DNA from: Conexivisphaerales archaeon
GTDB lineage: Archaea; Thermoproteota; Nitrososphaeria; Conexivisphaerales; DTJL01
DNA: 61,647 nt
NCBI GenBank assembly: GCA_049509455.1
Contig: JBEKZX010000004.1
Location: forward strand, 1 to 61,647
Direction of reading: 5' to 3'
The position numbers and the translations under genes were made by a program. Of the stretch, positions 947 through 45,444 are shown piece after piece. Within the stretch, counting starts at the first letter, position 1; every line of letters begins with the position of its first letter. Below the pieces are notes generated by a model. That model saw only the letters and a list, made by a program, of their open reading frames with translations. It was not told where the DNA came from and did not search any database.

Positions 947-1037
947 TGGCGGGCCCGGTGGGATTCGAACCCACGACCACGAGCTCTCTCCACGACTTCG
1001 GAGGCTCGCACCCTAATCCTGACTAGGCTACGGGTCC
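947..1037 (-). tRNA. tRNA-Arg(CCG) with 12-nt intron at 37/38 (986-997), encoded CCA
   Basis: GGACCCG acceptor, A20 in D-loop, CGAGC/GCTCG anticodon stem, GTGGG-TTCGAAT-CCCAC T-arm; CTCC/GGAG central BHB helix; TTTAAA ~25 bp upstream. Confidence 0.92.
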
Positions 1038-45247: not shown

Positions 45248-45262
45248 GAAAAGGACTTATAC
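45248..45262 (+). promoter_or_regulatory. BRE/TATA promoter of tRNA-Gln
   Basis: GAAAAGGAC-TTATAC; spacing predicts a transcription start near 45284. Confidence 0.6.
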
Positions 45263-45294
45263 CTACGAAAAGTCTGTGCATACGGTAGCCCTGA

Positions 45295-45444
45295 AGCCCG
45301 GTCGAGGCGCAGGTGCGCCGCCGAGTCTAGCGGCCAAGGATACCAGGCTCTGGATCCTGACAGCCGTGGGCTAGAACGAGACTCCTTGGCGCTGTTGGGA
45401 GGAGACCCCTGGTGACGAGGGTTCGAATCCTTCCCGGGCTACCA
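45295..45444 (+). tRNA. tRNA-Gln(CTG) with two introns: 10/11 (45305-45325, 21 nt) and 37/38 (45354-45406, 53 nt)
   Basis: Spliced product AGCCCGG TC GTCT AGCGGCCAA GGAT A CCAGG CTCTGGC CCTGG TGAC GAGGG TTCGAAT CCTTC CCGGGCT A CCA; A1-U72; BHB-type helices at both introns. Confidence 0.9.

Follow-up and report, generated by a model that had tools for sequence, protein, structure and literature searches.

The tRNA-Gln(CUG) gene of a Conexivisphaerales-like (Nitrososphaeria) archaeon was found to contain two inserts, one of which lies between tRNA positions 10 and 11 and has a splice motif built in part of acceptor-stem bases, and to be preceded by a spare copy of the 5' strand of its own acceptor stem. 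We propose that both inserts are protein-spliced introns, and that the copy in the leader acts as a decoy which frees the acceptor 5' strand for the splice motif of the first intron. The probability of this account as a whole we put at about 0.6. The gene was read from the sequence at 45295-45444 on the plus strand of the window, by which we mean the whole analysed stretch of DNA with its 61,647 nucleotides. Its parts and the elements upstream of it are:

45257..45261, plus strand: putative promoter element, the TATA-like box TTATA; it lies 27 nt ahead of the leader copy.
45284..45293, plus strand: GGTAGCCCTG, the leader's copy ("decoy") of the acceptor 5' strand, which complements 45434-45443; it is followed by A45294 as a spacer.
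45295..45304, plus strand: exon 1, tRNA positions 1-10, AGCCCGGTCG; C5-U8 correspond to 45299-45302.
45305..45325, plus strand: intron 1, 21 nt, between positions 10 and 11; absent in 14 insert-less orthologues.
45326..45353, plus strand: exon 2, positions 11-37, with the remaining D arm, the 5' strand of the anticodon stem and the loop with CTG.
45354..45406, plus strand: intron 2, 53 nt, at the canonical position 37/38; its motif was read by hand.
45407..45441, plus strand: exon 3, positions 38-73, from the 3' strand of the anticodon stem (CCTGG) to the discriminator A (45441).
45442..45444, plus strand: encoded CCA; C74 and C75 pair with both G's that open the leader copy.

From 45295 onwards the sequence runs as AGCCCGGTCG, the 21-nt insert 45305-45325 and then TCTAGCGGCCAAGGAT. 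Exon 3 further comprises a 4-nt variable region, the T arm GAGGG-TTCGAAT-CCTTC and the acceptor 3' strand CCGGGCT (45434-45440). The gene was identified as tRNA-Gln(CUG) by its anticodon CTG (45350-45352), its complete cloverleaf and its orthology to Gln genes across the order; the isotype call rests on the anticodon, on orthology and on the identity of the acceptor and T arm to those of tRNA-Gln(UUG), rather than on the score of an isotype-specific model. The host assembly comprises 2.05 Mb with 58% G+C and is 95.5% complete, the window being its contig C75, and the DNA runs which contain this stretch are peat and wetland metagenomes. A search for sequencing runs listed 22, none of which is recorded as RNA. 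With introns allowed, ARAGORN reported 36 tRNA genes in this genome, among them an intron-free tRNA-Gln(UUG) at C92:10440-10517. The last 34 nt of the tRNA-Gln(CUG) gene are identical to C92:10484-10517, and the two genes share the same acceptor and T arm. The gene at 45295-45444 itself was missed by ARAGORN in default mode and by Rfam at the gathering score; in E-value mode, Rfam gave a tRNA match of 22.1 bits which starts only at model position 9 and skips 56 nt at the anticodon. The original prediction had named another intact tRNA-Gln(CTG) gene, together with the lack of a spliced product, as evidence that would speak against it. No such gene was found in the 95.5%-complete assembly by BLAST, by genome search or by a pattern combining the D arm and the anticodon loop.

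Intron 1 opens with A45305, which is followed by a hairpin (GGCGC at 45306-45310, loop AGGT, GCGCC at 45315-45319), by the return strand GCCG (45320-45323) and by AG, the first two bases of the 3' stretch. The return strand pairs with C5-G6-G7-U8 (45299-45302) and thereby forms a central 4-bp helix, which is flanked by the 3-nt stretches CG/A (45303-45305) at the 5' site and AG/T (45324-45326) at the 3' site. In the 5' bulge, C9 and G10 are contributed by exon 1 and A45305 is the third base. The hairpin, the central helix and both stretches are exactly those that had been described in the original prediction, and its further claim that removal of the insert gives a normal D arm was borne out as well: without 45305-45325 the D stem consists of G10.U25, U11-A24, C12-G23 and U13.G22 (100% paired in 14 of 14 distinct relatives), and the resulting junction is the same as in the insert-less orthologues. 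An outer helix is missing at the 3' cut site, where C12, U13 and A14 face C4, C3 and G2 and cannot pair contiguously. In the minimum-energy fold of the precursor from this window, the bases of the 3' site are engaged by part of intron 2, with unpaired probabilities of 0.55, 0.20 and 0.21. The motif fails the strict hBHBh' criterion, as a closing helix is lacking at the 3' site, and belongs to the relaxed class. Those features of the bulge-helix-bulge family that it does have are the central helix, the 5' bulge with an outer hairpin and an excision that restores the cloverleaf.

The position of the junction could be compared with that in relatives. A search of 41 related genomes yielded 14 distinct insert-less orthologues from other families of the order, in which the junction ...UCG|UCU... 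is read without interruption (AGCCCGGTCGTCTAG; members of other families carry the uninterrupted AGCCCGGTCGTCTAGCGGCCAAGGAT). Since these orthologues read across the junction, they fix the boundaries of intron 1 independently of any motif. The junction given by the splicing rule coincides with the indel boundaries set by this comparison, in agreement with the earlier claim of an insert of the protein-spliced type at 10/11. In the window's own family an insert is present at the same site in eight of nine genomes; the ninth genome is 59% complete, and in it the UUG gene alone was seen. With a pattern blind to the motif, in which exon 1 and exon 2 are separated by any 10-40 nt, 16 further metagenome loci and six genome loci were recovered. 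The insert-bearing set comprises 30 loci, of which 20 are distinct with long flanks and 14 are distinct over -14 to +4. These 14 sequences span four genera of one Conexivisphaerales-like family; they are kin, and counts across them overstate their independence. The inserts are 17-30 nt long, and every one opens with A and a hairpin (3-6 bp with a loop of 2-15 nt by greedy pairing) and ends with GCCG-A-(G or A). The CGA bulge and the helix between C5-U8 and GCCG are kept in all 14 sequences, and with the inserts disregarded, each of the acceptor, D, anticodon and T stems shows 100% pairing throughout the 14 aligned sequences.

A relaxed motif of this kind, counted as a 4-bp helix with its return strand, a 3-nt bulge and a hairpin of 3 bp or more, occurs by chance about 34 times per kb per strand within the window, and its mere presence therefore proves little. 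If one pair of cut sites is fixed, the chance estimate is approximately 0.001 (0.034 per start, spread over 31 allowed lengths). What outweighs chance is that the cut sites are independently set indel boundaries, that this is true in every relative although insert lengths differ, and that changes in the hairpin are compensated. In three of four counted hairpin pairs both sides have changed (GC to AU, CG to UA and GC to CG). The number of cells with both-sided changes is seven, as against a mean of 1.9 after shuffling, and none of 500 shuffles reached seven, figures which overstate the case since the sequences are kin. The proposed precursor structure is 95.9% paired, a value that drops to 25.6-49.3% if the partners are shifted by 1-3 columns. 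As the central helix does not vary in any of the 14 sequences, covariation speaks neither for nor against it. Judged from this comparison, intron 1 is very probably real and spliced at 10/11. It would be a protein-spliced intron of an already known kind.

The second insert is an ordinary, independent bulge-helix-bulge intron. By reading, it has a full motif with the central helix CUCU:GGAG, the bulges GG/A and AC/C and the outer helix UCCUGA:UUGGGA, and in the relatives its length is 43-54 nt. It contains the motif GGGCTAG (45368-45374), whose conserved part GGGCU(A) is a copy of the acceptor 3' strand. We considered GGGCU as the missing outer helix of intron 1 or as a partner of the leader decoy, and rejected both possibilities: it is absent in the relative L007, which has intron 1, and is present in L009 and L014, which do not, so that it is not tied to intron 1. 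Its presence in L009 and L014 indicates that it is older than intron 1.

Immediately upstream of the gene, the leader carries a copy of the acceptor 5' strand that complements the acceptor 3' strand together with A73, C74 and C75. In this window the pairing consists of eight contiguous pairs with 45436-45443, followed by a U.C mismatch and one further pair. In all 14 insert-bearing sequences the leader has the consensus G(G/A)TAGCCC, after which come two bases that vary and a spacer of 0-2 nt, and the helix between leader and 3' end is 98.2% paired across these 14 distinct sequences. The pair at C74 is GC in ten of them and AU in four: the relatives without an encoded CCA, in which the trailer is ATC or ATG instead of ACC, have GAT in the leader in place of GGT. 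This covariation concerns one pair in one clade and hence probably reflects a single event. A leader copy is absent from the 14 insert-less orthologues, in which the longest complement between leader and 3' end is 3-5 nt, and none was found at the intron-free Gln(UUG) gene with its identical acceptor stem. The original prediction had mentioned neither the copy at 45284-45293 nor the canonical intron at 45354-45406.

An A/T-rich box is located 27-30 nt upstream of the copy. The pattern was found in six of the eight rows scanned (L001-L005 and L008), and similar A/T-rich boxes were seen by eye in L006 and L007. The textbook spacing of archaeal promoters was taken as the basis for placing the transcript start. 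Counted from the TATA-like box, transcription would begin at or just before 45284, and the copy would thus form the very 5' end of the transcript.

The central helix of the intron 1 motif uses acceptor bases 5-7 and therefore cannot coexist with the acceptor stem. It had been concluded in the original prediction that the precursor must refold, and in silico this holds. Folding was calculated with a nearest-neighbour model, in which tertiary structure and proteins are ignored. In the partition function of precursors lacking the leader, the probability of the acceptor stem is 0.89-0.98 and that of the splice helix at most 0.02 in all 14 sequences. When a 14-nt leader is included, the probability of the acceptor stem falls to 0.04 or less in 13 of 14 sequences, the exception being L007, which retains the acceptor stem with a probability of 0.88 despite its leader. 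The splice helix then reaches a probability of at least 0.1 in ten of 14 sequences, with 0.85 for this window, and stays below 0.1 in four. The minimum-energy fold for this window with its leader comprises the leader helix and exactly the central helix, CGA bulge and hairpin of the original prediction. After removal of both introns in silico, the leader helix is still predicted with a probability of 0.97-1.00, as against 0.00-0.02 for the real acceptor stem. Concerning the order of the two splicing events, the folding results conflict: in silico removal of intron 2 raises the probability of the splice helix in five of 14 sequences and lowers it in nine, while in 12 of 14 it raises the unpaired probability averaged over the three bases of the 3' site.

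The same design was found in other tRNA genes of the genome. When the assembly was scanned for T arms accompanied by matching acceptor strands, 32 candidates emerged, some of which are not real tRNAs; a leader copy was scored when at least 6 of 7 bases matched within 18 nt. Of the 19 candidates whose 5' part is uninterrupted none has a copy, as against five of the 13 in which the 5' part is interrupted or was not recognised. Those with a copy are the Gln gene, L058 (Met-like), L059 (Thr GGU, assigned by hand reading), L061 and one probable non-tRNA on C126. L058, L059 and L061 have an insert after position 8 or thereabouts, and their leader helix reaches 1-2 bp past the acceptor stem into the discriminator. 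In all three, the predicted probability of the real acceptor stem drops from 0.86-1.00 without the leader to 0.00 with 14 nt of it. The genes on C60 and C80, in which the inserts are located deeper in the D arm, have no leader copy. Since the copy-bearing genes belong to different tRNA families, this association is better evidence for a function than conservation in the Gln gene alone.

A relaxed motif requires an endonuclease of broad specificity, and non-canonical introns are cut only by endonucleases of the two-subunit and epsilon types (PMC5829648). Two endonuclease paralogs were detected in the genome, on C130 (181 aa) and C108 (269 aa), both with the N-terminal and the catalytic Pfam domain. 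The 181-aa paralog matches the alpha subunit of Aeropyrum pernix (3p1z_B, E 5.8e-44). According to the alignment it keeps a His at the position replaced by Ala in 3ajv_B, and its sequence AKPKG aligns to EKPRG of 3p1z_B residues 43-47, with lysines at K44 and R46. In A. pernix, K44 has a role in the Crenarchaea-specific specificity loop (PMC3241643). By homology, the genome thus encodes a two-subunit, Crenarchaea-type splicing endonuclease, whose 181-aa subunit is probably of the catalytic type in view of the retained His, while the 269-aa paralog is in our reading non-catalytic. An RNase P RNA was also found (186 bits), and the leader is therefore presumably removed by RNase P.

From the anatomy, the conservation and covariation, the predicted switch and the presence of the enzymes we infer splicing itself, the transcript start, the need for the leader and the order of steps in the following model. 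Intron 1 would be offered to the endonuclease by the helix between bases 5-8 and GCCG, with the C9-G10-A bulge and the hairpin on one side, and the 3' cut would be made two bases past the central helix, within unpaired RNA. Bases 5-7 belong to the acceptor stem, so that formation of the motif requires the acceptor 3' strand to be held elsewhere. The leader, in which GGU precedes the copied acceptor 5' strand, would bind the 3' strand and A73-C74-C75 more stably than the real strand does. At the beginning, the acceptor 3' strand would be captured by the leader copy, and the intron would then pair with the freed real 5' strand. The two-subunit endonuclease would cut after G10 and before U11, and the ends would be joined by a ligase. 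Only then could the D stem form for the first time, after which the real acceptor stem would re-form and the leader would be cut off by RNase P. Candidates for what displaces the decoy are the new D stem together with tertiary contacts, proteins, or the capture of a minor conformer. We lean towards the view that presentation of intron 1 requires the leader copy. A more tentative proposal, which we would rate slightly below even odds, is that such leaders are a dedicated and recurrent device at the transcript start, which forces splicing to precede 5' trimming, admits introns at about positions 3-11, where they would otherwise have no access, and arose repeatedly (in at least four genes here).

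Several results could also be reconciled with a leader copy that is not needed. Intron 1 would in this case be spliced with its motif formed through breathing of the acceptor stem or with the help of proteins, and the copy would be a neutral relic of a duplication that went along with the gain of the intron or would serve another role, for example protection of the end or blocking of RNase P, of the CCA-end enzymes or of aminoacylation before splicing. A duplicated strand would match the 3' strand simply through its origin, the sole covarying leader pair is confined to one clade, the acceptor stem of L007 persists in spite of the copy, and the dominance of the leader helix after splicing in silico is explained at least as well by a block of end processing. 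On the other hand, the copy has been kept in four genera while the remaining leader diverges, and within the copy the inner two bases vary while the 8 bp that extend into A73-C75 are constant. Moreover, copies accompany 5'-proximal inserts in three unrelated tRNA genes and occur in none of 19 uninterrupted ones, and the splice helix does not exceed a probability of 0.02 when the leader is left out. We therefore consider an unneeded leader unlikely, though as an explanation it deserves to be taken seriously.

The remaining alternatives concern the gene itself. It is very improbable that we are dealing with a decaying pseudogene in which the 21-nt insert is not removed and that CAG codons are read by tRNA-Gln(UUG), since the exons are perfectly conserved with every stem 100% paired across four genera, the hairpin changes are compensatory with the geometry of the cut sites kept, the promoter-like box is found at a fixed spacing, and no other CUG gene was found in the assembly; such a reading could appeal to the intact Gln(UUG) gene at C92:10440-10517 and to the failure of the standard finders to detect the gene. 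A different exon structure is hardly credible. If the upstream copy at 45287-45293 were the true acceptor 5' strand, as its perfect AGCCCGG in L005, L006 and L008 might suggest, then in the window's genus a U at copy position 6 would face C67, the 0-2-nt spacers would put no U8 in the right place, and no motif would be available for excision of the alternative segment; by the U6:C67 clash, the misplaced U8 and the lack of an excision motif this possibility was ruled out. A cut at 9/10 instead of 10/11 would yield an identical product here owing to G45304 and G45325, but the insert-less orthologues fix UCG|UCU, and in relatives with inserts ending in AA a 9/10 cut gives A10, not the conserved G10. 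As only the 10/11 cut restores G10 in these relatives, the ambiguity of the G in the window is resolved. We thus retain the reading of two protein-spliced introns in a tRNA-Gln(CUG) gene, the first of which would be presented with the help of the leader copy.

Introns at unusual positions are not in themselves new. With tRNAscan-SE 2.0, which has a Thaumarchaeota-specific motif model and adds 60 nt of flank for introns near the ends, 107 non-canonical introns at "seemingly random" positions were reported in Thaumarchaeota genomes (PMC8450103). The original prediction stressed that the insert is far from 37/38; the location at 10/11 stands, but given the non-canonical sites known in Thaumarchaeota it is not remarkable per se. 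The positions named in the text of one review are 3/4, 20/21, 22/23, 25/26, 29/30, 30/31, 45/46, 53/54, 56/57, 59/60 "etc." (PMC4090602); 10/11 is not among them, though it may be listed in the figure of that review or in the supplements of PMC8450103. Intron 1 resembles the relaxed (BHL-type) introns of Crenarchaeota and Thaumarchaeota in being short, presumably protein-spliced, outside 37/38 and next to a canonical intron, and also in its 4-bp central helix, in cuts two bases into the 3-nt stretches and in a host with a two-subunit endonuclease. It differs from them in that the central helix is built of acceptor-stem bases. The introns at 3/4 in the acceptor stem of Thermoproteales tRNAs, a position called extreme (Sugahara et al. 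2008, as cited in PMC4090602), are comparable because their motif must also involve acceptor-stem bases and compete with the mature fold, whereas position and lineage are different.

A further parallel is given by the split and permuted tRNA genes of Nanoarchaeum, Caldivirga, Thermofilum and red algae, in which pairing of leader and trailer builds the splice motif (PMC4033280, PMC3978253). There, as proposed here, a flank that is transcribed and later discarded pairs so that the endonuclease can act. However, in those genes the flanks make up the bulge-helix-bulge and are themselves endonuclease substrates, while the leader of tRNA-Gln is located outside the motif and would be removed by RNase P. 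The D-loop intron of A. pernix tRNA-Thr is cut without guide RNA or modifications (PMC3241643). It shares with intron 1 the D-arm region and a similar alpha subunit (E 5.8e-44) with a conserved loop lysine; it differs in lying in the D loop and in having a full motif independent of the acceptor strand, and no involvement of a leader is described in the available part of that paper. Precursors with several introns and ordered splicing also have two introns per molecule and a structure that changes between the steps, but the two motifs of tRNA-Gln do not overlap. Neither a tRNA leader with a decoy or spare acceptor strand nor an intron at 10/11 was found described in the literature searched, which was covered mostly at the level of abstracts, and the leader decoy is thus apparently an undescribed way of presenting such introns.

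The general problem behind these observations is one of folding. For introns in or beside the acceptor stem, the splice signal and the mature fold are mutually exclusive, and no account of how this conflict is resolved was found in the literature searched. If the proposal made here is true, a leader decoy would be a simple answer that needs RNA only, and it predicts that splicing takes place before the action of RNase P. It would also explain why standard gene finders miss such genes or misplace their 5' ends. For annotation, the gain is the recovery of the sole gene for tRNA-Gln(CUG) that was found in these archaea of peat and hot springs.

A doubling of the acceptor 5' strand occurs in other tRNA genes of the genome from which the window originates (G000), at the following three loci:

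C53, 29500-29720: tRNA gene (L058) with the acceptor 5' strand GCCGGGA present twice
C53, 53920-54110: tRNA gene (L059) with the acceptor 5' strand GCCCCGG present twice
C116, 4860-5040, minus strand: tRNA gene (L061) with the acceptor 5' strand present as GCTGCCG and as GCCGCCG

Each of the three genes carries an insert directly 3' of position 8 or of a position close to it, and the predicted probability of the real acceptor stem, which is 0.86-1.00, drops to 0.00 with 14 nt of leader.

In insert-less relatives from one family (L009 and L010, family f2), the leader has GGT immediately 5' of position 1, at about 1490-1500. This GGT would lengthen the acceptor stem by pairing with A73-C74-C75, and the arrangement in the insert-bearing family resembles this one with a duplicated AGCCCGG and the intron added.

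The acceptor 3' strand is also copied inside intron 2 of the studied gene, and a fragment resembling part of tRNA-Gln lies on another contig:

Window, 45368-45374: GGGCTAG, copy of the acceptor 3' strand in intron 2
C1, 6173-6199, minus strand: fragment like the tRNA-Gln T arm and acceptor 3' strand (…CCAATCCTTCCCGGGCTGCCA)

The GGGC of intron 2 is nearly invariant across the insert-bearing family, with the insert-bearing relative L007 lacking the motif, and it is also present in L009 and L014, which are without intron 1. Several predicted minimum-energy folds show the motif paired, either to the freed 5' strand or to the D-arm region. The fragment on C1 may be the attachment-site remnant of an integrated element.

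The window harbours a further interrupted tRNA gene:

Window, 947-1037, minus strand: tRNA-Arg(CCG) (Rfam, 47.8 bits)

As read from the sequence, its acceptor stem has an A3.C70 mismatch, and a 12-nt insert lies immediately 3' of the anticodon loop. In default mode ARAGORN reports a 4-base anticodon, and when introns are allowed it reports i(41,12). In the whole genome, ARAGORN with introns allowed detected no more than 36 tRNA genes. Several anticodon families are absent from this set, among them His, Trp, Glu-CUC and Lys-CUU. Many tRNA genes of this archaeon are probably concealed by non-canonical or multiple introns.
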